DNA of 64,000 nucleotides from Candidatus Heimdallarchaeum aukensis (GTDB lineage Archaea; Asgardarchaeota; Heimdallarchaeia; Heimdallarchaeales; Heimdallarchaeaceae). A program made the position numbers and the translations under genes. The stretch spans positions 960,001 to 1,024,000 of the forward strand of contig CP084166.1 of the NCBI GenBank assembly GCA_021513695.1. The letters run 5' to 3'. Within the stretch, counting starts at the first letter, position 1; every line of letters begins with the position of its first letter. The notes beneath the pieces were generated by a model. The model was not told where the DNA came from, did no database searches, and was given only the letters and a program-made list of their open reading frames with translations. Shown here in pieces: positions 49,948-64,000 of the stretch.

Positions 49948-50841
49948 GTGAGGATTATGAGTGTTGAAGAGTATTCAGGTAAAGACAGAGTTAATTTGGA
50001 GTACCTTGTGAAAGTGATTGATGATTTAATTAAAAAAACAAATCTTATTGAGAAAATGTTAACTGATGAAAAAGAGGGTAGAATTAATCAATATAAAGAA
50101 TTAACAAAGAAAATTGAAAAAAGTGAAAAAGAAACTAAAAGTATTAACACTCAACTGTCAAATTTAAAAACAAAACAACTGTCAAGCCTTTCTAAAGAAA
50201 TTGAAGATTCAAAGAAGGCGTTATTAATTATAAAAGAAAGAATTGATGAAAAAGATAAAGATATTGAAAATCTTGAGATGAAAATTAGTGAAGTAAACAA
50301 ACTGTTTGAACAGTTTAAATCTAATCTAAACGAAGAAAAACAGATCAGAGAAGAAAAAGAACAAGAAATACAAGAGCTAAAAGAAAAGAATAGCGAACTA
50401 AGCATAAGGTTAGAAGAAAAAGAAGAAAGACTGAAACAACTTGAGAATGAATTAACAAAATTAAAAGAACAACTAGGTTCATTGAAAGATAAAAAAGAAA
50501 ATCTTACTTCTAAAATTGAGAAATTAAAGGAAGAAAAGAAAGAACTAAACGAAAAATTGAAAGAAATCGAAAAAGAATATAAAAACTACAAAGACAATAT
50601 GGAACCAGTAATTGCTCAAAATACACATATTAAAAAACTACTTGACGAGAGTTTACAAGGAAAAATATATCTTTACTTACTAGAAAAATATCCAAAAACA
50701 TCAAATATTGATGATATAGCGAAAGAAATAGACTCTCCTGCTGTGAAAATAAAGTCAGAAATACTAGCAATGCAAGAAATGGGTGTAATAAGATACAATA
50801 CTGATACAAGAGAAGTTTTTATCACAGAAAAAAAAGTCTAA
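49948..50841 (+). CDS. Coiled-coil protein with a C-terminal winged-helix-like domain.
   Basis: ~200 aa of heptad-like K/E-rich sequence, then '…YLYLLEKYPKTSNIDDIAKEIDSPAVKIKSEILAMQEMGVIRYN'. Confidence 0.45.
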   Translation: MRIMSVEEYSGKDRVNLEYLVKVIDDLIKKTNLIEKMLTDEKEGRINQYKELTKKIEKSEKETKSINTQLSNLKTKQLSSLSKEIEDSKKALLIIKERIDEKDKDIENLEMKISEVNKLFEQFKSNLNEEKQIREEKEQEIQELKEKNSELSIRLEEKEERLKQLENELTKLKEQLGSLKDKKENLTSKIEKLKEEKKELNEKLKEIEKEYKNYKDNMEPVIAQNTHIKKLLDESLQGKIYLYLLEKYPKTSNIDDIAKEIDSPAVKIKSEILAMQEMGVIRYNTDTREVFITEKKV

Positions 50842-51613: not shown

Positions 51614-52264
51614 TTATCTCCAGTCAAAATAAACTGAACTAAACTTTTCTGGAATTTCGATATTGTTAAGTAAAATAATGTCGAAACTTAATTTCTTAGG
51701 GAAAAATACAAAGTTAGCTTTTTGTAAAGGCTTAGAGTTATAATACGGAATATAAGGAGATTGTAATCCAACCCATCCTTTTGCATTACTTGTTTCTGAT
51801 AAGTACAGACTTAAATCTTTTGCTTCTTGTATAGATAGGTTTTTTATGTGGATAATGTCGATCCAACCAAAGGGAATAGAATTCCCAAAACCTGCTAATT
51901 GAAATTCCCAAGCAAGCATGAATCCTTTAACTTCTTTATTTTTTTCATAAATAACACAATTAGTAATTGGTTGTTCTAGTAACCATTTAAAATCTTCAAA
52001 GTTTGGCTCTATAGATGCGTTAAAATCTTTAGTTAGATTAGTAATCAACTCAAATAAAATAGGGATATCATCTTTTCTAAATTTCCTAAGATTTGCTCTG
52101 TTTTTTATTTTCTTATTCTTTTCTTTCAATTTGAAAAAATATTTTTCGTAAAATTTTAGTTTAACAACTTTTGAAACCTTTTCTGAATTGAAAACCCTAA
52201 TGATGAACTTGTTAGTTTCATATGGACGAAAAACTTGAAAACTTTTTTCTCTAGCAACTGACAA
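51614..52264 (-). CDS. Hypothetical protein (216 aa).
   Basis: ORF with protein-like composition. Confidence 0.4.
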   Translation of the reverse strand: MSVAREKSFQVFRPYETNKFIIRVFNSEKVSKVVKLKFYEKYFFKLKEKNKKIKNRANLRKFRKDDIPILFELITNLTKDFNASIEPNFEDFKWLLEQPITNCVIYEKNKEVKGFMLAWEFQLAGFGNSIPFGWIDIIHIKNLSIQEAKDLSLYLSETSNAKGWVGLQSPYIPYYNSKPLQKANFVFFPKKLSFDIILLNNIEIPEKFSSVYFDWR

Positions 52265-52345
52265 AGCTGTATCAATTCCATGTTGTAGGTTTTTTGGGCT
52301 TAATTCCTAGAGAATTTAGGATAAAGAAAGAAACTTACAAATTTG

Positions 52346-52699
52346 CTATTCCTGCTTGGTTAGCTGTACATCACCAACATAGAAGAAAAGGTTTAGCAAA
52401 AATGATGGGCAAAAAGATGCTTGAGATTGCTCAACAGGAATCATTTGATGGAGGTCTTGCTTTATTTGAACCAGAACAACATCGTTTGTTTTCTTGTAAA
52501 CAGCTCTAACAAAATAGTTTTTCTTAACTGTTGGAGAACCAAAAATTAACTTTATAGTTTTACCAGAAAAAAGAATAGAAGCTCCTTCTTCAATAGCTGC
52601 AGGGTCAGATAAGAAAGATTCAGAGAGTAGATCAGCTATTTTATTGTATTCTTTTTCTTCCAGCGTATATTGTTCTATTAGATAATCCTCATTATTCAT
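52346..52699 (-). CDS. Hypothetical protein, with its start placed at MNNEDY.
   Basis: The protein-like portion begins at 52699. Its 3' third overlaps a plus-strand ORF carrying a GNAT-like motif, so the extent is uncertain. Confidence 0.3.
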   Translation of the reverse strand: MNNEDYLIEQYTLEEKEYNKIADLLSESFLSDPAAIEEGASILFSGKTIKLIFGSPTVKKNYFVRAVYKKTNDVVLVQIKQDLHQMIPVEQSQASFCPSFLLNLFFYVGDVQLTKQE

Positions 52700-52920
52700 C
52701 TGTTTCAAAAACTTGAAGTTGTTTTTATTTTTTTCTCGATTTAAGAAAAAAGAGAAGTCAAAGATTTTTACAATTGAACAGTAATAGTCTAAGTTCGACA
52801 ATAATAGTCTATATCCGATAGTAATAATAAACACTTTATTAATACAACGATAAATTGAAAAGTTTTATATTTGTGTGTTATTTTATTAAAGTGGCAAAGA
52901 AAAATAAAGGAAGAAGAAAA

Positions 52921-53361
52921 GTGATTGAGTCAGTCTATATTATTTCCCGAACAGGATTACCTTTACTTTATGTAGATTTTGTTTCACAAGAAGATGATGT
53001 AGATGCCGTAACTTTATTTTCTGGAATAATTTCAGCGATACAAGTAGCAATGGCTGAAATTGATGTAGGTGTTCCGTCATTCTTTGATACAGAAAAAAAT
53101 GAAATCTTCATGAATGTAACAGAAAAATTTGCTATTGCTGTAGTAAAAAACCAAGAACCAATAGATAGAAATGAAATGAATAAACTAATGGATCAAATTC
53201 AAACCCTAGTATCATTTGATCAAGAAGTGGAAGATTTTAGTACCATTAGTGATGAAACAAAAAATAAAATTTCCAAAAAAATAAGGGAAATAGTTAATAA
53301 CTGGGAAGACTATATTAGCGAGAGAGAAGCAACAAAAAGAATAACGGAATCATTATGGTAA
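52921..53361 (+). CDS. Roadblock/LC7 (MglB-like) domain protein.
   Basis: 'VIESVYIISRTGLPLLYVDF…DAVTLFSGIISAIQVAMAEIDVG…EIFMNVTEKFAIAVVKN' follows the roadblock beta-alpha-beta-beta pattern. GTG 52921 is the likely start; the ORF track gives 52855. Confidence 0.55.
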   Translation: MIESVYIISRTGLPLLYVDFVSQEDDVDAVTLFSGIISAIQVAMAEIDVGVPSFFDTEKNEIFMNVTEKFAIAVVKNQEPIDRNEMNKLMDQIQTLVSFDQEVEDFSTISDETKNKISKKIREIVNNWEDYISEREATKRITESLW

Positions 53362-53378
53362 AAAGGTGAAAAATACAA

Positions 53379-54122
53379 ATGGTTGTCTGGCAAAATAAAA
53401 TTCCAATAAGTTCTATAATCTTTGAACTAGTGGTTGTTATTGCGCTAACTTTTATGGTAATAACAATTTTTGCAAGGTATTTTGCAAAAAGAAAAAAACC
53501 TGTGTTATATCTGGCTTTAGCATACCTGTTTTACGATCTTGCAACTTTAACAAGCTGTATCGGTCGGTGGTTAGGTTATTTCTCTTCAATTCCCTATACC
53601 GAGTTCTCATATACTGACTTTACAACCTTATTTGCATATGTGCTAATGGCTATAGCGAACGTATTTATTGCTGCATTTATTGACACAATATTTATTCAAA
53701 AAGGAGTAGATTTTGTCGCATTCTTTGCTATATTGAGCGGAATAATAATAGGTATGATAGTCCCTATACTGAATTTTGAATGGGGAAACATGAGATCACA
53801 TGTCTTAATAGTATCTTACCATTTAATACTTTCAATATTAATATTTCTAATACTAGCAATTGTGTCTTTAAGAGAAGCTAAAATGAATAAAAAGAAAATA
53901 GCAAAAATAGGTTTCGCTCTAATTGGAACCTATGCTATATTCATGATTCTATTATTTGTTTCATTTACATCAGATTCACTGCTTATAACTTATGTAGACG
54001 CATTTTCAAAGGGATACTCTCCTGCATATTACTTTGGATGGACACTTTTAGTTATAGGATCAATAATAGGTTATCTTGGACTAATTATGCCTAAATGGTT
54101 CGTAAAGATGCTTAAGTTATAA
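53379..54122 (+). CDS. Seven-TM membrane protein.
   Basis: Seven hydrophobic helices of ~20 aa counted by eye; 4-nt gap to the roadblock gene. Confidence 0.5.
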   Translation: MVVWQNKIPISSIIFELVVVIALTFMVITIFARYFAKRKKPVLYLALAYLFYDLATLTSCIGRWLGYFSSIPYTEFSYTDFTTLFAYVLMAIANVFIAAFIDTIFIQKGVDFVAFFAILSGIIIGMIVPILNFEWGNMRSHVLIVSYHLILSILIFLILAIVSLREAKMNKKKIAKIGFALIGTYAIFMILLFVSFTSDSLLITYVDAFSKGYSPAYYFGWTLLVIGSIIGYLGLIMPKWFVKMLKL

Positions 54123-54239
54123 TTAAATTAAATAAAATATAAAATCACTTTTTTCTTTTTTTTTAATATTACTTCATTATTCATGAGTTGAAATTTTACT
54201 TAATTTCTTCAGGACTCTACCCAACCAGTCAACAAACAT

Positions 54240-54400
54240 ATCGAAAGTTGTGAGGACTGGGTTAAGAGAACATGAAAGACACAGTCTTAATTAAGTTCTC
54301 TAGGGGGTTCATCTCCTGATTCCGGGCACTCATCACTCCCACAGGGAAGACCGGGTGTCGTAGGAATGAAACCTACGTCTTTAAGCATCTAGCTCAAGAC
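54240..54400 (+). ncRNA. Candidate structured ncRNA: a GC-rich island (~55% GC against a ~30% background) with hairpins. Identity and strand unknown.
   Basis: GC count of 39/70 for 54291-54360. Hairpins CGTAGG-AATGAA-ACCTACG (54359-54377) and GACTG…CAGTC (54255-54285). No ORF. Confidence 0.3.
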
Positions 54401-54593
54401 ACTATATAAATGATAATTGATTATATAAAGACAGCTGAAAAGTCTTGACACTCCCCCATATCGTGTAATCTTTCTAATAACTCCACAAACTAAAAATTTA
54501 GTTCTTTACGTAAAAAAGTATTTCATCTATATTTGTGTTAAGCAAAAATGGTTGATGAAACATATTCTTTATAAAAGTTAATGTGAAAGATAA

Positions 54594-55313
54594 ATGCGTA
54601 ATGTGGGTTTTATGAACAAATCATCCGTGAAAAGAAATTTAATGATTGTAAGAGAACAGGATGTTGTTGTTACTGGCGGTGTGGTTTTTATTGGAGATGG
54701 ACATACTGGCAAAACGCATACAGCTCTTAATCTTGTAAGAAATAAGGATAGATATAAGAAAACAGACTTGATCTCGAAGTCAATAAATGTAGAATTTGAC
54801 TATTTTGTTTATCAATCTAATTACCAACAGTATAAATTTACAATAAGTGCACAATTGTTTATATTTCCCGGGCAAAAAGGACGAGCGAAAAAAGGAGAAG
54901 GGTTAGCATTTGAGGATGCTCTAGACCTGTATTTTGATGTTAGAACGGTGAAAGAGGTTATTGTTCTAATACTAACTTTCAATCTTACAGATATAGCTAC
55001 ATTTCAAAACTTAGAATATTGGGTTAAAACAGCTATAGAGAATAATTTAGTCTCAGAAGCAACTAACATAATTTTGTTAGGTACTCACTACGATAAGAAA
55101 TCAAACATTGCTGTGAATGAAACAGATATTATACATGGAAAAAAATTTGTTCAAGAACAAATTGCTAATGAATTGAATATTGATTTTCCTCTGAAACAGA
55201 TCACTGAAGTGAATATATCAAATTTGACAGAAGAAGGTATCGAAAATTTAATTGGAGCGATTATAGACGCTTTTTTCAACGTTTTTAATATAGATGAGTT
55301 TAATTTAATTTAG
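54594..55313 (+). CDS. Divergent small GTPase (Ras-superfamily-like).
   Basis: P-loop 'GDGHTGKT'; G3-like 'IFPGQ'; G4-like 'LLGTHYDKK'; G5-like 'ISNL'. Confidence 0.6.
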   Translation: MRNVGFMNKSSVKRNLMIVREQDVVVTGGVVFIGDGHTGKTHTALNLVRNKDRYKKTDLISKSINVEFDYFVYQSNYQQYKFTISAQLFIFPGQKGRAKKGEGLAFEDALDLYFDVRTVKEVIVLILTFNLTDIATFQNLEYWVKTAIENNLVSEATNIILLGTHYDKKSNIAVNETDIIHGKKFVQEQIANELNIDFPLKQITEVNISNLTEEGIENLIGAIIDAFFNVFNIDEFNLI

Positions 55314-55334: not shown

Positions 55335-58300
55335 ATGAAGTTTCAAAAGCATATAATAATCACAATAAATTTTTTATTAATTTTACAGTCATTGTTATAT
55401 ATTCAAAATATTAGCAATTCACAAAAAGATAGACAGAATATTACTCAGATTATCCCAGGAAACATTGAAAACAATCAACAAGAGAGTATTTATCATTCAG
55501 ATGTTTCCTCAACAAATGTACATACAACTCTTACTCAAGGAACAAACAAAACTTTTGGTTTCTTTACGCAAGATAGCTATGTAAATTTAGATTCTGATGG
55601 AAATGTGTTTCAATGGGAAAAGTATGATGTTGTAAAAGATACAGGTGATAATAGTGTTTATGCTGATTTTGCAATGGATTACTCTTATTCTTATACTTGG
55701 CCAAGTTCTCCTAATAGCTATGTTCCATTAATTGATATTGAAACAGGAACACAACTAGCTTCAACCTTTAGTCCTCCTTTTTCAGAGACTACTTATCTAT
55801 CAGGAAAAGTTTACTTCTTAACATATATTTCCACTTATGTATCAAGTTTTACCATTACTTTAACTCTCAGAATTCGATTGTGGTTATATAATCCTAATGA
55901 TGGAGGACTTACAGAAATTTTAACTATCGAATCTGTTCTTCCCGATAATTCTGATTTAACACAACGTGTTTATTCTTCAACTTTAGAAGATAAAGTTACC
56001 ATCCCCTCAGGTTATAGATTAAAAGTAACTTATGAAGCAAAAACGAGCAGAATAGATAGAGCTGCTTATGTTCATCTTGAAACTGGAGAATATTCAGATG
56101 GTGACCAAGTTAACTGGCAGATAAATGACGCAGAGTATTCTAACACTTATACTTTAAATGACGTTACTTCAGCTCTAGGTGTACAGTTGTATATGTATGA
56201 TGAAACATATCCTACTATTTCAATTTCTGGAGCAGAAAACAATACGATTTATTACGATACTAATGAAATAACAATCAGTACATCTGGAGCAGTAAGTAAT
56301 TCCTACAAATGGGACAGTAATTCATATACTGCTTTTGATCCTCCTGTGAATACAACTCTCCCTTCATCAACAGGTTGGCATTATTTGTATATTCAAGCAC
56401 TAGATGAATATGATAACAAAAATGAAGTAGTATACAAAATAGGCTATGAAAGTTCTAGCATAGTTTTACATAATGCAAACAATAATTCTTTAGTTCCAAA
56501 TAATTTTCTTCTTAACTTTAGTTTGTCTGGATACGATTCAGCGCAATATGCTTGGGATAGTGGAGGAAATTATACTTTTTCTGATCCTTATGACATTTCA
56601 GTACCAGATTTCTCAGGAGAGCACACACTCTATATTTATACAGTAAGCAGCTTTGGAGAAAATAAAACTGTTTATGTTTTTGAAGTTGATAACAGCCCGC
56701 CCTTAATCTCCTTAAGAGACTTAAGCAACGATACTACACAACCTACAAACAAGAAAATTGAACTGAATATTACAGATCAAACTTCAACTATTGAAGTTCT
56801 ATATAATTGGGATAATGTTGCTAATTCAACCTGGAGCCCATTAGAAGGAACAATCTACCAAACTTTTGCTCCAGATACTGATGGTTTTCATTGGCTCAAT
56901 GTATATGCAAACGATAGTTTTGGTCATATTATTGATGTACATTACAGATTTAATATTAGTTCAGACTATTTGCTGGTAGAATTAAGAACAATGATAAATG
57001 ACAGTTATTATTACGGAGGAAACACAGTTGAGGTTACGATTACAGGTACAAATGGGACAATAAAGTATCAGTGGGACTCAAATGGATTCAAAGATGGGGT
57101 AACAGTTGATTCAATCTTGTCTTTATCAGGTTCAGAATCATTACCGAAAGACCTTGGAGTGCATTATCTTACAATAATAGTTGGAGATGTAGATGACAAT
57201 CCCAAATCAACTTTGTTTAAATTTACAATTGACCAAGAAAATCCTGTAGTTTCTAATTTTGGAAATTACAATAATTCAAGATTACACAGTTCCACAATAA
57301 TTGATCTTGAAATAACAGATAATTTTACTTTAAGTAGTGAAATAGAAGCATGGGTATCAATAGATGGAGGAGGAAATATATCTTTTACGTATCCCTATGA
57401 TATTAAAATATCTTCTTTAGAAGATGGAGTTCATAATATTACTGTTTTTGCCTTTGATATTGCGCGAAATAATGTTTCTTGCTTAATAATTTTTGAAATT
57501 GATACGACAGCTCCAGAAATAGATATTGTTTCCATTCAAGGGTTAGAAGTTTCTTCTAGCGGTGTTTCATATATTCCCGGAAATGCAGCAATTGAATGCT
57601 CTTTTGTTGATGCAGACCCCGAAATTTATCACTTTTATTCATGGAATAACTCAGCTTTTACACTATTTGCTGGAAATACTTTTAATTTACCTGATACTGA
57701 TGGAAACGCAACCCTACGCATTTTAGCTAATGATACATTAGGAAATGAGAAAATTTTAACATTAGATCTTTTTATAGACACTACTCCTCCTCAATTGTCT
57801 ATACTGTTTCCTAATAACTACTCTAAAATCAATGAAGCGACACCTTTATTGTTTTTTGCTAATGATAGTGCAAGTGACACCATTTCTTCAATTTCTGCAA
57901 AATGGGACCAATTTCTAGAAGGAAAAATAGACCTTTCTCCACCTTATTTTACAATTTATTTATCAAGTCTTAAAAAACTCTATGAAGAGTTATCAGTTGC
58001 AGAGTTATATATTGATGCAAAAGATATTCTAGGAAATAATTTTACGTATATTTATTCATTTAATCTTGATTTTTCTCCGCCTTCCTACAATTTAGTAGGT
58101 GCCCAAAATAATACTTTTGTAAGAAGTGATACAATCCTTCAATTTGAAAATTTAAGTAATGACTTAATGAAGTTCGTTTATTATTGGGATTCTAATGATA
58201 TATCTATCTTAGATGATCCGTGGACTATATCAATACCAAATAATGATGGGGTACATAATCTTACAGTAATTCTTTACGATAACACAGGTGAGGGATATTA

Positions 58301-59942
58301 CCCAAATTGGGTTAAATCATTTTACACTTTTGTTGTTGATGATATTGGGATTGAAATTACTAGTCCGTCAAGTTTTTCCAATAATACAGAAGTTGGAATT
58401 GTATATAAACAATCATTTACCTTTTCTGTTGATGTCTACGATACAGCAGACAATCAAATTATAGATAATCTTAATTTTGTAATTTTAAACAATACACTGA
58501 ATCTAGAAATAGAGAATGAAACCTTAGATGGAAAAACATATACGATAACCATTCATGGTACAAATGTTGGATCAACAAGATTAATTTTTCAGTTTTCTAA
58601 GGGAAATTCGAATAAACATCAAATTGTTGTTCCTCTTACGATTGAAAAGAAAGAAGGAACAGTTTCATTGTTAGGGACAAGCGTCTTAAGCGTGATATAT
58701 GAAGAAAATTTCACTATAATACTGAATTTAGAGGATGAAAACTCTAATCTTTTAAATATTACCCGGGTGACTGTTAATGGTAGTTTAGTGAGCGATTTTA
58801 TCTATTTAGATGAATATCATGCTATACAATTTAATTATTCTTCAAGAGAAACAATAGGAAAAGGAGAATATAATCTGTTAGTTAATATTGAATCTAATTA
58901 TTACTATGGAGAAAAAATAATTGGCATTGAGGTTAAACCTATCCCTATTATTCTAAGTTTATCAGTCTCAAGTTATACTGTAATTGAAGGTTCTCAAGTT
59001 GCAATTACAGGAACTCTTACTTTTACAAATGGGACTCCGATACCTTCTATAACTCTATACTTTTCTATATATATAGTCTATAAGAATCAGTCCAATAATA
59101 ATGTCATGGCTCTGCCTTCAGAATACGGAAGTAAGGTTGTTTTCTCAGGATTAACTAATTCCTCTGGACAAGTAACGATTGCTTTTGAAATGACTTCAGA
59201 GATAGATTATATTTCAGTTGATTGTTCTTTTGGAGGGAGTAATATCTTTGACACAGTTTACTATGAAATGGAGGAATATATTTATTCTATACCTACTCCA
59301 AAACTTCCAACTTGGATATTATACACAATAATTGGTGGAAGTATTATATTGGCAGCAATAATCTCCTTTGTTGTTTATAAGCTTACTAGACCTAAACCAT
59401 TTGATGAGATATTAAATTCAATTTCTGATAATGATATCGTGATGAACATGACCCGTATCTGCCCTGGTGTTGTTCTATCAATCTTTGATCAACGCAAAGG
59501 TGCAATTCCATTAGTGTCTGATCATTCATTGGATTATAGTTACAGTGGAAGAATTAGGATAGGGCTTGAAAACTTTATGTTGAAAATTTCAGATCAAGCT
59601 TACTCTTCATTGGGCTTTGAAGAGCACCATTCTGGGCGTAGAACAGGAACAATTACTCTACCAAATGAAGGACTTGTAGGTTTTATTCATGGGATACAAT
59701 TGGAAAATAAAGCTGCGAGAGGAGGTTTTGAAAACCTTTCACTTATTGTGCTTGTAGAAAATGAGTACGGGACAATGTTACTTAGTTATCAAGAATACCT
59801 GTATCCCTTAATTGATGAGTTAATTTCCATGCTAAAAAATAAGAAACCGTTGGAGGATATTGAAGAACAATTATCGAATATACGTAGTCAAGCAACAAAA
59901 ACAGTTTTAGCTTCATTAGAATATGAAAATGCAATGTCTTAA
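55335..59942 (+). CDS. Giant (1535 aa) type-I membrane protein. It has a signal peptide, at least 7 extracellular Ig-like repeats each with a W-D-S motif, a single TM (59310-59390) and a ~180-aa cytoplasmic roadblock/longin-like domain.
   Basis: Repeated '…Y(K/A/Q)WDSN…' modules; TM 'WILYTIIGGSIILAAIISFVVYKL'; cytoplasmic '…ICPGVVLSIFDQRKGAIPLVSD…LSLIVLVENEYGTMLL…'. Confidence 0.6.
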   Translation: MKFQKHIIITINFLLILQSLLYIQNISNSQKDRQNITQIIPGNIENNQQESIYHSDVSSTNVHTTLTQGTNKTFGFFTQDSYVNLDSDGNVFQWEKYDVVKDTGDNSVYADFAMDYSYSYTWPSSPNSYVPLIDIETGTQLASTFSPPFSETTYLSGKVYFLTYISTYVSSFTITLTLRIRLWLYNPNDGGLTEILTIESVLPDNSDLTQRVYSSTLEDKVTIPSGYRLKVTYEAKTSRIDRAAYVHLETGEYSDGDQVNWQINDAEYSNTYTLNDVTSALGVQLYMYDETYPTISISGAENNTIYYDTNEITISTSGAVSNSYKWDSNSYTAFDPPVNTTLPSSTGWHYLYIQALDEYDNKNEVVYKIGYESSSIVLHNANNNSLVPNNFLLNFSLSGYDSAQYAWDSGGNYTFSDPYDISVPDFSGEHTLYIYTVSSFGENKTVYVFEVDNSPPLISLRDLSNDTTQPTNKKIELNITDQTSTIEVLYNWDNVANSTWSPLEGTIYQTFAPDTDGFHWLNVYANDSFGHIIDVHYRFNISSDYLLVELRTMINDSYYYGGNTVEVTITGTNGTIKYQWDSNGFKDGVTVDSILSLSGSESLPKDLGVHYLTIIVGDVDDNPKSTLFKFTIDQENPVVSNFGNYNNSRLHSSTIIDLEITDNFTLSSEIEAWVSIDGGGNISFTYPYDIKISSLEDGVHNITVFAFDIARNNVSCLIIFEIDTTAPEIDIVSIQGLEVSSSGVSYIPGNAAIECSFVDADPEIYHFYSWNNSAFTLFAGNTFNLPDTDGNATLRILANDTLGNEKILTLDLFIDTTPPQLSILFPNNYSKINEATPLLFFANDSASDTISSISAKWDQFLEGKIDLSPPYFTIYLSSLKKLYEELSVAELYIDAKDILGNNFTYIYSFNLDFSPPSYNLVGAQNNTFVRSDTILQFENLSNDLMKFVYYWDSNDISILDDPWTISIPNNDGVHNLTVILYDNTGEGYYPNWVKSFYTFVVDDIGIEITSPSSFSNNTEVGIVYKQSFTFSVDVYDTADNQIIDNLNFVILNNTLNLEIENETLDGKTYTITIHGTNVGSTRLIFQFSKGNSNKHQIVVPLTIEKKEGTVSLLGTSVLSVIYEENFTIILNLEDENSNLLNITRVTVNGSLVSDFIYLDEYHAIQFNYSSRETIGKGEYNLLVNIESNYYYGEKIIGIEVKPIPIILSLSVSSYTVIEGSQVAITGTLTFTNGTPIPSITLYFSIYIVYKNQSNNNVMALPSEYGSKVVFSGLTNSSGQVTIAFEMTSEIDYISVDCSFGGSNIFDTVYYEMEEYIYSIPTPKLPTWILYTIIGGSIILAAIISFVVYKLTRPKPFDEILNSISDNDIVMNMTRICPGVVLSIFDQRKGAIPLVSDHSLDYSYSGRIRIGLENFMLKISDQAYSSLGFEEHHSGRRTGTITLPNEGLVGFIHGIQLENKAARGGFENLSLIVLVENEYGTMLLSYQEYLYPLIDELISMLKNKKPLEDIEEQLSNIRSQATKTVLASLEYENAMS

Positions 59943-60049
59943 CAAATTTTTTATAGAAAAATAAAACTAATGCTTTTTTTATTTTTTATTTGCACCTAGG
60001 AAAATGTTATTTATTGTTAACGAACTATTGGTATAATAGGAGAAGCAAT

Positions 60050-61462
60050 ATGTCTTATCTTTTAGATGAGTTAAAGAGGAAAAAACAAGCTGAAACCGAC
60101 GAAACCATTGATAAAATACTTCTAATGGGACTTCAAGAAGCTGGAAAAACAGCTATTAAAGATGTTGTTTTTTTTGATAAAGATCCTGAAGAAGTTGTAG
60201 AATATATGGCAACAACTCATTATCAAAGACAAATCATTGGAGACAAAAAAAAGAATTTACTTATCGATTCAGGAGGACAAGAAACTTACTGGAACGAAGC
60301 AGTAACATATTTTCGCTACTTGATTTTTTCTAATGCTAAAATCCTTATTTGGGTGGTAGATTTAACTCATCCTGAACTTTTTGATGAATCAGAAAGAAGA
60401 TTTAGCTTCACAATTAGACAATTTAAGAAAGAGAACAAAGATGGAAAGGTCTATGTTTTTTGTCATAAAGCTGATGTTGTTGAACCAGAAAAACTAGATG
60501 CAGTAGTTGAGCATGTAAAAGAACTGTTATCTGATCCCAAATTTGAGATTGAATTTAAAATTACATCAATATTCAAAAAAAATGAGTTAAAGCAAATAAT
60601 GAATAAAATTCTCGAAGAATCTTCAATTGATCAAGAACAAATAGAACTTGTCACTGATGTTGAAAAGAAAATTGAAGAAAGCCCTGAATTTGTTAAATTT
60701 CTAGAAGAACATAAAGCAGATCCACGAGTTAAAGAACTCATGGAATATATTAAACCTCAACCAAAACAATATTTACCTTCATTTGGGAAAGTAGAAGTAG
60801 ATGTGAACCTTGAAAATTATGGTATTATTGAAATCATTATACTTGATAAAGAAACATTGAAGCCAGCAATAGGAGCTTCATCACATATCATCTCTAATAA
60901 AAAACAATCATTTGAATATATTCTGGCTCTTAATTATTTTAAAAACTTAATAAAATCAAAAGAACAGAAAATTGAAGCTCTTGGAAGTACCTTTAGTTAT
61001 CCTGAAGGTGAAGTTCATGCATTGATTTTTAATTTGAAGAATAGTTACATTATAATTACCTCATTTAATGAAATAGATGAAAACATAAAAAAGGAATTAT
61101 ACAAATTTATTCTCAAATTTTCAGATGAAATGGTAAAAGAAAAATCACTCGTTAAAGAAGAAAGCATTTCTAAACCCCCTAGTATAGCAACTGAACAAAG
61201 CGTTGAAATAGAACAATCAATAGCCCAAGAAGTGAAAAAAGATGAAAAGAAGGTTTTTGCAGAAGAAGTTTCTTCAACGCAAAAAGAAACTTTAGTCAAA
61301 GAAGATGAAGAACAAAAACAAATGATAAAACAAGTCTCCTCTGAAAAAGCTAAATTAGAAGAAAAGAAAAATGGAGTAGGTTTAGATATTACAGAGAGAG
61401 ACATAACTAAAATAGCTAAATTTCTATATGATCAGCTGGATAAAGAAAAAAAAGAAGAGTGA
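60050..61462 (+). CDS. Rag/Gtr-like GTPase with a C-terminal roadblock-like domain and an acidic/lysine-rich tail.
   Basis: G1 'GLQEAGKT', G3 'DSGGQE', G4 'CHKADV' (HKxD as in Rag/Gtr), 'ITSIF' after the G domain. CRD '…YGIIEIIILD…VHALIFNLKNSYIIITSF'. SD AGGAG before ATG 60050. Confidence 0.7.
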   Translation: MSYLLDELKRKKQAETDETIDKILLMGLQEAGKTAIKDVVFFDKDPEEVVEYMATTHYQRQIIGDKKKNLLIDSGGQETYWNEAVTYFRYLIFSNAKILIWVVDLTHPELFDESERRFSFTIRQFKKENKDGKVYVFCHKADVVEPEKLDAVVEHVKELLSDPKFEIEFKITSIFKKNELKQIMNKILEESSIDQEQIELVTDVEKKIEESPEFVKFLEEHKADPRVKELMEYIKPQPKQYLPSFGKVEVDVNLENYGIIEIIILDKETLKPAIGASSHIISNKKQSFEYILALNYFKNLIKSKEQKIEALGSTFSYPEGEVHALIFNLKNSYIIITSFNEIDENIKKELYKFILKFSDEMVKEKSLVKEESISKPPSIATEQSVEIEQSIAQEVKKDEKKVFAEEVSSTQKETLVKEDEEQKQMIKQVSSEKAKLEEKKNGVGLDITERDITKIAKFLYDQLDKEKKEE

Positions 61463-62686
61463 TTAAACTGGTCTACTTTTTCCAATACTTCTGTATTCAC
61501 AGTTATTGTCAAGAAGAATTGGAATCTCTCTCATTTCAGTTATACATTCATGAATTGGGTATAATTCTATAGTTGTAGTACCAAATCCTTTCTTAATTTG
61601 AATTGCATGCTCAAAATTATCAGCATTCTCTAAAGCTACCTCTAATATTGATTTATGTAATTCTCTTCCACAAATGTCACATTTAAAGTAAATTTGCTTA
61701 TTGATCTTGGTTTCTAATTGTTCTTTGTTTAATATGTTATGAGATTCGAAAAAGGTAATCAATTTATCTTTAACCTTTATTTTAGCAACAGAGATGACTT
61801 CTTCTGTTTTGAACATTTTTCTCATTTGATCACAAATTTCATGAAAAGTAGAAATCTGCTGATTTAACTGTTCTTGCGAAGAAAAAACTGAAGTAATGAC
61901 AAGGTCTTCTTCGATTTCTCTAATAAATATCCTTGAGTCACTCAAAGAAAAGACAATATAATTCAAATCAAGACTAGGTGAGTAGATCTTAACTAGTTCA
62001 GAGCGTAATCTGGAAAGATTGAGATTAACTTCTTTTTCTGGTTCAGAGTATAAAACCAAACCTTTGGAAGTTGATAGGGTTAGAAGATTTAGATTATATT
62101 CTGATACTATCTCTTGAATGTTAGAAGCTTTTGTTAGGTCTCTAGGATAAACAACAGAAAAAATTCTTTGCATTGCATCCCATATATTCTCTTCAAAGAT
62201 AGAAGTTTCATAGATTTCAGAATTGGGATACTTGCTCAACTCAAAAATATCTTTAATTGAACGTGTAATAGCAGCCCTTTTGTCAACAGGAACAACATCC
62301 ATTTTATGGGCGAAAACATAGATTCTAGCGCTAGAACCAATTTTTTTAAGATTATCCAAAGTAAGATCAAAATAATATTTAGAACGCATGATGTTAGAAG
62401 CATCAGAAATATCAACAACATAAATCAAAGCTTTAAGGTCACTAAAAGTTCTTTCAGTATATTTCTCAAAAAGCTCATTTAAATAAGAAGATTGACCTCC
62501 TACATCAACAAGATTAATAGAACTTCCTGCAAAATTGAAAAGCTTACGATTAATTCGAACTGTAGCAGGATTAAGAGAAGTTGCTTGAGGAGCAAAGCCT
62601 TCAAAAACAACTTGACGAATAGAAGTTTTACCAGATTGAGATAACCCCAGAATAACAATTTTTGATTGAAGTGAACGATCATTCAT
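61463..62686 (-). CDS. Rag/Gtr-like GTPase with a C-terminal roadblock-like domain and a terminal zinc ribbon.
   Basis: G1 'GLSQSGKTS', G3 'LVDVGGQ', 'LIYVVDI', G4 'AHKMDV'. '…YETSIFEENIWDAMQRIFSVVYPR' parallels RagA '[21 protein letters not shown]'. 'CDICG…' zinc ribbon. Confidence 0.8.
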   Translation of the reverse strand: MNDRSLQSKIVILGLSQSGKTSIRQVVFEGFAPQATSLNPATVRINRKLFNFAGSSINLVDVGGQSSYLNELFEKYTERTFSDLKALIYVVDISDASNIMRSKYYFDLTLDNLKKIGSSARIYVFAHKMDVVPVDKRAAITRSIKDIFELSKYPNSEIYETSIFEENIWDAMQRIFSVVYPRDLTKASNIQEIVSEYNLNLLTLSTSKGLVLYSEPEKEVNLNLSRLRSELVKIYSPSLDLNYIVFSLSDSRIFIREIEEDLVITSVFSSQEQLNQQISTFHEICDQMRKMFKTEEVISVAKIKVKDKLITFFESHNILNKEQLETKINKQIYFKCDICGRELHKSILEVALENADNFEHAIQIKKGFGTTTIELYPIHECITEMREIPILLDNNCEYRSIGKSRPV

Positions 62687-63344: not shown

Positions 63345-64000
63345 CTACTGGGACTGCAACCAATGGCTGAGCCCTAGGCAAACAGTGAAATGGGTAGAAC
63401 TGTATCTTTGACCAGTGAGGTAATCAGTGATAGTGTTTCCTTGAGGACTGAAAAGAGCACCAAGGAACTTACGAGCGATATTCATTGCTCCTGTGAGGTC
63501 AGAGTGGAAAGTGTAATTGCAAGAAGAACAATGAACTAAACCTCTTACTGGACGGACAACTTTCCTTCCACAACGAGCACAGTGAGAAGATGTCCCTTTT
63601 TCCTCTATCGTTAATATTCGGTGAGGGTCAAAACCTCTTAATATTAGTGCCCGACGGAGAAGAGTAAGAACAAGGTAAAAATTCCACTGATGAAGTTTCC
63701 TGCGAAACTTACGAGTACTTTTACCTTTCTCTTTTCCTTTCTCCTCGCGAACATGTTTAGGGTAACCTACAACGACGAAAAGGTCATACATTCGCGCATA
63801 GGTCTCTATCGTCTGCACAACCTCACTTACAAATTGGTAAATATAGGCTCGTTTAACGTTTCTATATCTTCTTCGAAGAAGACTAAGAAAACGATAAACT
63901 TGATGTTTTTTACCCGACTGGTCGTTTAAAGCTGCTTTTCTCTGAAGACGGGAAAGTTTGACTTTATATCGATGGTTGACTCTATTCCACTGTTTGGTAT
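63345..64000 (-). CDS. tnpB: TnpB-like (IS200/IS605 OrfB family) protein, C-terminal ~215 aa. The gene continues past the 3' window edge.
   Basis: Minus-strand frame is open to the window end ('TKQWNRVNHRYKVKLSRLQRKAALNDQSGKK…'). Zinc finger 'CARCGRKV…CSSCN'; RuvC-III-like 'SDLTGAMNIA'. Confidence 0.65.
   Translation of the reverse strand, partial: TKQWNRVNHRYKVKLSRLQRKAALNDQSGKKHQVYRFLSLLRRRYRNVKRAYIYQFVSEVVQTIETYARMYDLFVVVGYPKHVREEKGKEKGKSTRKFRRKLHQWNFYLVLTLLRRALILRGFDPHRILTIEEKGTSSHCARCGRKVVRPVRGLVHCSSCNYTFHSDLTGAMNIARKFLGALFSPQGNTITDYLTGQRYSSTHFTVCLGLSHWLQSQ

Follow-up and report, generated by a model that had tools for sequence, protein, structure and literature searches.

Positions 52,921 to 55,313 of a 64,000-nucleotide stretch of the Candidatus Heimdallarchaeum aukensis genome (contig CP084166.1 of assembly GCA_021513695.1, positions 960,001 to 1,024,000 of the forward strand; hereafter the window) carry, on the plus strand, genes for a small sandwich-fold protein, a seven-transmembrane (7TM) protein and a small GTPase. 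An earlier note on this DNA had read the three as one receptor-like triad, and the question that the locus raises is whether they belong together at all. Gene linkage within each of two modules and the absence of linkage between them were both shown, and we read this segment as probably a chance junction, in the H. aukensis genome, of two conserved gene modules that are independent of each other and that it covers in part: Module A, a predicted longin and the 7TM protein, and Module B, a cluster that starts with the GTPase. The window as a whole has a G+C content of ~30%, and its proteins are 91–99% identical to Candidatus Heimdallarchaeum proteins.

Persistent co-encoding of the longin and the 7TM protein

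Module A consists of two genes on the same strand, separated by 17 nt: gene 1 encodes a predicted 146-amino-acid (aa) longin-domain protein (52921..53361, plus strand; alternative starts at 52891 and 52855), and gene 2 encodes a 247-aa seven-helix membrane protein (53379..54122, plus strand). The first protein shares 99% identity with H. aukensis K9W45_04170; a GTG start at 52921 is favoured because its orthologues begin MIQAVY or MIEAVY, and the NCBI model for H. aukensis (P0222) starts 10 codons earlier. The coordinates, the 17-nt spacing, the seven hydrophobic segments and the GTPase motifs GDGHTGKT, FPGQ and THYD that the earlier note had reported were all confirmed on the sequence. That note had named a start far upstream with a non-roadblock fold as a finding that would count against it; the orthologues support the start at 52921, and the predicted fold is that of a longin rather than a roadblock protein.

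Scanning one genome per species with a 13-sequence 7TM alignment yielded 36 loci, from metagenome-assembled genomes (MAGs) labelled Heimdall-, Thor-, Hel-, Loki-/Promethearchaeota and Hermodarchaeota. A hidden Markov model (HMM) search of the open reading frames (ORFs) at these loci located a longin-family gene no more than 180 nt from the 7TM gene in 28 of the 36; of the remaining eight loci, three are truncated by the end of a contig. The arrangement takes three forms: firstly, the longin gene lies upstream on the same strand in 22 loci, mainly from Heimdall-labelled MAGs (21 at 17 nt or less or overlapping, one at 121 nt); secondly, it lies 89–124 nt downstream in five loci from Thor- and Loki-/Promethearchaeota-labelled MAGs, one of the five being unlabelled; thirdly, it is divergent from the 7TM gene in one locus, from a Helarchaeota MAG. 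A search from the longin side added a Hodarchaeales MAG (L051) in which a 7TM family member (E 1e-37) is encoded 86 nt upstream. The neighbourhoods of four 7TM relatives have a small protein directly upstream in four of four cases, and downstream they have FG-GAP β-propellers, acetyltransferases or opposite-strand genes and no GTPase.

The adjacency is kept at identities to the window proteins of ~16–20% for the longin and 25–27% for the 7TM protein, and because the position of the longin gene varies among lineages (upstream, downstream or divergent), the partnership has survived rearrangement. These data show that the longin and the 7TM protein are persistently co-encoded, with a spacing that mostly implies co-translation. 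The unusual, receptor-like combination that had been noticed at this locus holds in this part, a regulator-type sandwich protein being paired with a heptahelical protein in 28 of the 36 loci and in L051; membership of the GTPase does not.

Several of these genomes show further features around the pair. A second longin–7TM pair is present in H. endolithica (L027), and the 7TM gene is tandemly duplicated in L026, L031 and L041. Throughout an AB_125-like Heimdall clade (L006, L008, L014–L025, L034) the pair travels with two further genes, both absent from the window: one for a 74-aa protein, found on either side of the pair in 13 loci, and one for a 329-aa GNAT acetyltransferase ~100 nt downstream, found in 10 loci. 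A distinct, locally conserved neighbourhood is seen in L040, L042 and L051 (Thor-, Promethearchaeota- and Hodarchaeales-labelled), where the pair has on one side a family B DNA polymerase gene, itself next to a ~90-aa gene, and on the other a Rad51/KaiC-like gene of ~250 aa on the opposite strand; the Rad51-like gene also occurs in L043 and L044.

Fold and family of the two Module A proteins

The AlphaFold2 (AF2) model of the first protein has strands at residues 2–9 and 14–19, a helix at 28–46, strands at 53–56, 61–66 and 70–76, and helices at 83–99 and 111–145, a β-β-α-β-β-β-α-α sandwich in the order that characterizes longin domains, with a long C-terminal helix that ends ...ESLW. In an alignment of 20 diverse family members, taken from neighbouring genes in related loci, G12, L32, A39 and the C-terminal W146 are invariant. 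The profile of these 20 sequences retrieved 611 protein clusters, of which all the named ones are Asgard and many carry a precomputed PF19036 annotation; by Pfam scan this entry is Fuz_longin_1, the "First Longin domain of FUZ, MON1 and HPS1". Three relatives score above its gathering score of 26.1 bits (P0223, 26.3; P0230, 33.0; P0250, 30.1) and two below it (P0305, 25.2; L030, 22), and the window protein is linked to Fuz_longin_1 through the family profile (A6; E 1e-23 to 1e-29). Sequence searches of the PDB with the longin, alone or as a 5-sequence profile, returned nothing significant.

The same protein had been taken for a roadblock protein, and roadblock/LC7 (MglB-like) identity was rejected on three grounds: firstly, the AF2 model opens with two strands and not with the helix of the α-β-β-α-β-β-β roadblock order; secondly, Robl_LC7 (PF03259) reaches 16.3–16.8 bits (E 0.003–0.008) in three of five close orthologues, as compared to a gathering score of 23; thirdly, adjacency to a cognate MglA-type GTPase is lacking in the 36 loci. 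Judged by its predicted structure, the first protein is a longin and not a roadblock protein.

Hydropathy analysis of the 247-aa ORF gives seven hydrophobic segments, and the AF2 model has seven helices followed by a short C-terminal helix. Lys and Arg residues cluster in loop 1 (five residues), loop 5 (six) and the C-terminus (three), and because of this clustering the positive-inside rule predicts an N-out/C-in topology. Hydropathy, the positive-inside rule and the AF2 model are in accord with the heptahelical assignment that had been put forward. In the predicted model the helices pack as in the fold of G-protein-coupled receptors (GPCRs), and the matches of the model in a fold library are receptors, together with one unrelated transporter of low TM-score.

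A profile search recovered 296 representatives of the 7TM family at E ≤ 1e-3, nearly all of which, fragments aside, are ~240–270 aa long. The named members come from Heimdall-, Hel- and Lokiarchaeota and from one MAG labelled Euryarchaeota/Methanobacteriota, and the H. endolithica counterpart is 91% identical to the window protein. Longer members have a duplicated 7TM domain, a winged helix-turn-helix-like tail (recognized by eye) or a zinc-ribbon tail, and none of them is a longin–7TM fusion of the "Rosetta stone" kind; in the 398-aa protein P0190 the 7TM domain is duplicated internally, in tandem. Across 62 diverse members, conservation averages 1.68 bits in the cytoplasmic third as compared to 1.19 bits on the outer side, and positions of at least 2 bits number 21 on the cytoplasmic side and 10 on the outer side. 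Conservation is strongest at the cytoplasmic helix ends and in the motif that joins TM7 to helix 8, for which the family signature is YLG[YL]xMPxW[FL]K.

Pfam and NCBIfam have no family, of transporters or of enzymes, to which the 7TM protein is similar, so that the housekeeping transporter named in the earlier note as a refuting identity is not what it is, and a PDB sequence search with it returned nothing significant. None of the 62 members matches a Pfam GPCR family at E ≤ 0.1, and the class A motifs DRY and NPxxY are absent, TM3 ending in FIDTIF and TM7 reading YLGLIMPKWF. The sole Pfam family matched by more than two of the 62 members is 7TMR-DISM_7TM (PF07695), a bacterial sensor module, which is hit by seven of them at E ≤ 0.1 (best 2.7e-5), all below threshold; the window protein itself scores 10.8 bits against a gathering score of 29. 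Three other identities were considered and rejected. Microbial rhodopsins were set aside for lack of the retinal-binding Lys in TM7 (215–235, AYYFGWTLLVIGSIIGYLGLI), where none of eight close homologues has a Lys, and PAQR-type and transporter readings were set aside on the N-out/C-in topology and the lack of family matches.

The GTPase cluster and the spacer that precedes it

Module B gene 1 encodes a divergent Rab/Ras-like small GTPase in a 239-aa ORF (54594..55313, plus strand), with a probable start at Met7 (54612) because the 99%-identical P0008 has 233 aa. Its motifs are GDGHTGKT, F91-P-G-Q94 and T164-H-Y-D167, so that G3 is without Asp (FPGQ) and G4 has THxD where NKxD is usual. G3 and G4 had been described as degenerate, but they are not decayed: aligned family members keep G1 as GDGxTGKT, G3 as [FM]PGQ and G4 as THx[D/E], with P92, G93, Q94, T164 and H165 invariant. 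The P-loop GxxxxGK[ST] and the Pfam Ras match (27.6 bits, cut-off 21.6) place the protein in the Ras superfamily as a Rab-like member; Roc gives 21.6 bits, and Ras is matched by 18 of 18 family members. The family comprises 53 homologue clusters at ~50% identity, all named ones being from Heimdallarchaeaceae/Heimdallarchaeota. The nearest PDB relatives are Rab21, Rab33B and Sec4, all weak matches, and the family profile gives 129 PDB matches at E ≤ 1, the best 60 of which are Rab, Sec4, Ypt7, Cdc42 and similar proteins. MglA, Arf and Rag are absent from these best 60 of 129, and with Rabs as the PDB relatives an MglA identity was rejected.

The GTPase has partners of its own. Gene 2 of Module B, which begins 21 nt past the GTPase ORF, encodes a giant single-pass protein of 1,535 aa (55335..59942, plus strand); gene 3 encodes a 490-aa Gtr1/RagA-family GTPase with a long C-terminal extension (59990..61462, plus strand); and gene 4, convergent with gene 3, encodes a second Gtr1/RagA-family GTPase of 407 aa (61463..62686, minus strand). 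The products of genes 3 and 4 both belong to Pfam Gtr1_RagA (PF04670, cut-off 22 bits), with 84.3 bits for gene 3 and 112.8 bits for gene 4. A giant gene follows the GTPase gene in five of six other loci (L009, L010, L048, L049 and L050, the exception being L011), and its products have at least ~1,000 aa, the complete genes giving 1,560–1,610 aa. The next gene after the giant is a Gtr1/RagA gene in all three loci that extend far enough (L048, L049, L050), and L049 and L050 also have the second, convergent Gtr1_RagA gene (407–432 aa). The window matches this order of GTPase, giant and two convergent Gtr1/RagA genes exactly: the GTPase is a member of Module B, a cluster conserved in Heimdallarchaeaceae.

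The giant protein opens with a signal-like segment, continues as a large ectodomain rich in repeats, crosses the membrane in one predicted helix (about aa 1325–1347) and ends in a cytoplasmic tail of ~190 aa. End to end, the window giant is 34% identical to that of L009, whereas the tail is far more conserved, with a mean column identity of 72%. The tail carries the motifs FDQRKG[PA]xPL and GRR; its RR pair is invariant, and four of five orthologues have FDQRKGP[IV]PL where the window has GA. The GTPase-activating protein (GAP) longins of FLCN, SMCR8 and NPRL2 and related Heimdallarchaeial longins share a "GP motif", a Gly-Pro before β2 with a catalytic Arg nearby (PMC12290439), and the Gly-Pro of the giant's tail, placed by eye, would fall in a putative β1–β2 loop. 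Pfam Folliculin scores 13.5 bits on the giant (E 0.065, cut-off 23.3), hhalign of the tail with the longin family of Module A gives a probability of 0.3%, and searching the PDB with an HMM was likewise negative. A FLCN-like GAP longin in the tail is therefore possible, as a lead and not a finding.

The 36 loci that carry the 7TM gene contain no GTPase of the window's family, by an HMM search of all their ORFs, and a loose P-loop pattern picks out GTPase-like ORFs up to 6 kb from the 7TM gene in three of the 36, none of them adjacent. Modules A and B lie on separate contigs in GCA_029856355 (L006 versus L048) and in GCA_030603365 (L019 versus L009), and the H. endolithica 7TM gene is followed by FG-GAP genes, with no GTPase within 8 kb. 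In the window, the GTPase gene does lie downstream of the 7TM gene, as had been noted, but it does not follow directly: 471 nt of non-coding DNA separate the 7TM stop from the GTPase ORF, and this spacer holds an oligo-T run (TTTTTTCTTTTTTTTT; 54149..54164, plus strand), an inserted element and a separate TATA-like box (TTTATAAAA; 54568–76) directly before the GTPase start, the run and the box both being read from the sequence. Oligo-T runs serve as archaeal transcription terminators, and this one, which lies 27 nt after the 7TM stop in a stretch conserved in H. endolithica, is likely to terminate the two-gene Module A unit; a scan for bacterial promoters and terminators is uninformative here, the host being an archaeon. 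Because the 36 loci have no family GTPase, the GTPase has its own downstream partners and the spacer carries these signals, we regard the two modules as separate.

The inserted element is a GC-rich, structured sequence of 342 nt (54185..54526, plus strand) that is part of neither module. Its G+C content is 52% against a background of 30%, and H. endolithica has an empty site at L002:8805, where ...TCATTATTCAT is joined directly to TTATGTTTGTGTTAAG.... An 82%-identical copy lies 7.3 kb away in H. endolithica at a non-syntenic position (L002:16024–16408), and most of the differences between it and the window copy fall where bases are unpaired or a wobble pair is kept. Relative to shuffled controls, folding was better for the plus strand (z = -3.2) but not for the minus strand (z = -1.5). 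Searches of the element returned no tRNA (ARAGORN, intron option included), no Rfam family at gathering score or at E ≤ 10, and no phage match. It looks like a small mobile structured element, possibly one resembling miniature inverted-repeat transposable elements, one derived from IS200/605, or a non-coding RNA of no known family. Because the element is inserted relative to the empty site of H. endolithica, the present spacing of Modules A and B is recent; the gap between the 7TM and GTPase genes would be ~130 nt without it.

Further genes of the window flank the two modules. At 51614–52834 on the minus strand, an NMT/Acetyltransf_9-like GNAT gene is broken by an internal inversion of ~216 bp (about 52282–52497), with residues 74–146 on the plus strand, including an ORF at 52294–52509 that has a GNAT motif, and with the short inverted repeats ATGTTG / CAACAT at the breakpoints. 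The same two minus-strand GNAT ORF fragments are called on the independent Logan contig L001, whereas in H. endolithica and L004 the gene is unbroken and is transcribed divergently from the longin gene. A 297-aa coiled-coil protein with a faint winged-helix (EarA-like) C-terminus is encoded at 49948–50841 and has the same relative position in H. endolithica (L002:635–1519). At 63345–63818 on the minus strand, a 157-aa ORF combines a CxxC...CxxC zinc ribbon with a tail resembling the C-terminal part of a TnpB/Cas12f-like nuclease; in H. endolithica, a full Cas12f1-like_TNB gene is inserted near the longin–7TM pair (L002:5039–6541).

A candidate longin–7TM complex and its alternatives

We propose that Module A encodes a co-transcribed pair, a cytosolic longin and an N-out/C-in 7TM protein of GPCR-like fold, which would assemble in fixed stoichiometry on the cytoplasmic side of the membrane. 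The 7TM protein would be the sensor and/or the anchor, and the longin, probably dimeric as in other longin platforms, would be the output, a docking, guanine nucleotide exchange factor (GEF) or GAP platform that serves one of the many small GTPases whose genes lie elsewhere in the genome. A candidate interface would bring together the invariant C-terminal helix and terminal Trp of the longin with conserved residues of intracellular loops (ICL) 1 and 3 and of TM7–helix 8 of the 7TM protein. We hold the physical complex to be likely, and its signalling role is a tentative suggestion with the odds somewhat against it. The most specific form of that role, in which a receptor senses a ligand or the state of the membrane and its conformational change is read by the C-terminal helix and Trp of the longin, in a docking that can be likened to that of the Gα C-terminal helix in the cytoplasmic cavity of a GPCR, so that a longin GEF or GAP platform acting on an Asgard small GTPase is switched, is speculative and on present evidence improbable.

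Several observations weigh against this proposal. Five complete loci have no adjacent longin gene (L035, L038, L039, L045 of Lokiarchaeum ossiferum, and L047), and no GTPase client linked to the pair was found in the 36 loci. The window's own longin falls below every Pfam threshold and has no match to Fuz_longin_1 itself. Modules A and B are neighbours here, and a functional link specific to this lineage may exist between them. We infer physical binding, the direction of signalling and the existence of a GTPase client.

The alternative that survives best accepts the complex and denies it a role in signalling: the longin would be an adaptor for assembly, sorting or trafficking, on the model of the longin domains of adaptor σ/μ subunits, Sec22 and TRAPP, or a regulatory subunit of a 7TM channel, transporter or lipid-handling protein. 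We consider it rather unlikely, since the 7TM protein resembles no Pfam or NCBIfam family of transporters or enzymes and, one unrelated transporter of low TM-score aside, matches receptors in fold, its sole recurrent family hint is to a bacterial sensor module, and its conservation lies on the cytoplasmic face and not along a pore.

Far less probable is a single receptor-like system of three genes, in which the sandwich protein would serve the adjacent GTPase as a GAP or partner in the manner of MglB, with the 7TM protein as the receptor of both. The three genes are co-oriented within 2.4 kb, the gap between the last two would be ~130 nt without the insertion, and the xPGQ of the GTPase G3 resembles the TxPGQ of MglA. 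Longin and roadblock proteins, moreover, do regulate small GTPases (PMC10933270). Against these points stand the lack of a family GTPase in the 36 loci, the separate contigs of the two modules in two genomes, the GTPase-free 8 kb beside the H. endolithica 7TM gene, a predicted longin in place of a roadblock protein, Rabs and no MglA among the best 60 of 129 PDB matches, and the oligo-T run and separate TATA-like box between the 7TM and GTPase genes. As a conserved arrangement the three-gene system is contradicted, and the triad, whose conservation in relatives the earlier note had put forward as a check, is not found as a unit there.

That the longin–7TM adjacency is functionally meaningless, a case of genomic hitch-hiking in related genomes, is hardly credible: many of the 36 loci do come from related Heimdallarchaeia MAGs with inherited synteny, yet the adjacency is kept at low identity, in three gene orders and with wholly different flanking genes.

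The longin–7TM complex that we favour resembles several known systems in part. Its longin is a single stand-alone domain of ~140 aa, unlike the three-longin RabGEF subunits Mon1, Fuzzy and HPS1, and differs from these as well as from TRAPP, adaptor σ/μ subunits and SRα (SRX) in its extra long C-terminal helix with an invariant terminal Trp; a 7TM partner stands in place of the second subunit of longin platforms, and no Rab client is linked. Like MglB/MglA, the locus has a small α/β sandwich regulator of the wider longin/roadblock superfamily and a nearby GTPase with PGQ in G3, but the regulator has longin topology, adjacency to the GTPase is not conserved, and the GTPase, whose sequence is Rab-like, has other partners. 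Eukaryotic GPCRs differ from the 7TM protein, which belongs to none of their sequence families, lacks DRY and NPxxY, has very short loops and is linked to a longin as its cytoplasmic partner; no Gα-like gene is linked to the 7TM gene, and heterotrimeric G proteins are not known in archaea.

Among prokaryotic systems, 7TMR-DISM receptors combine a heptahelical sensor module with a cytoplasmic output, as the proposed complex would, and in SRII–HtrII the output, like the putative one here, is the product of a separate, adjacent gene. Unlike 7TMR-DISM receptors, the 7TM protein has no DISMED ectodomain and no fused output domain, and the PF07695 matches stay below the gathering score; unlike sensory rhodopsins, it can form no retinal Schiff base, TM7 being without Lys; and unlike both, its putative output is a longin and not a kinase, a cyclase or a transducer of the methyl-accepting chemotaxis protein type. 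Module B, for its part, recalls Ragulator–Rag–folliculin in that two convergent Gtr1/RagA GTPases adjoin a protein with Gly-Pro in a putative β1–β2 loop of its cytoplasmic tail, and differs in that a 1,500-aa membrane protein would carry the putative GAP longin as its tail and in having an extra Rab-like GTPase.

Asgard archaea have many small GTPases and longin/roadblock proteins, reportedly seldom in shared operons, and dimers of longin or roadblock proteins are known to act as platforms for GTPases (PMC10933270). Tran et al. note that in MK-D1 the GTPase genes as a rule share no operon with genes for roadblock or longin proteins (PMC10933270), and Liu et al. report a different conserved operon, made up of a LAMTOR1-like roadblock protein, a Rab-like GTPase and a DENN protein (bioRxiv 10.1101/2020.10.19.343400). 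Because GTPase and longin/roadblock genes rarely share operons, assigning regulators to clients and to membranes is hard in Asgard archaea. The full-text literature searched holds no description of an Asgard longin–7TM pair, prior mention elsewhere, for instance in asCOG tables, being possible; the pair is conserved and apparently new to that literature, and we infer its function.

Module B is a candidate archaeal counterpart of FLCN–Rag signalling wired to a surface receptor, the FLCN-like tail being a possibility. The longin–7TM pair offers a concrete two-protein system for testing, in which a longin of the Mon1/Fuzzy RabGEF type is joined to a heptahelical protein of GPCR-like fold, and it bears on how longin platforms were first recruited to membranes and on whether receptor-shaped 7TM proteins signalling to GTPase regulators existed before eukaryotes. 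Were the sensing-receptor reading true, the pair would represent an archaeal pathway from receptor to small GTPase, older than eukaryotic GPCR–G protein and Mon1/Fuzzy-type RabGEF signalling and perhaps an ancestor of it or a parallel to it.

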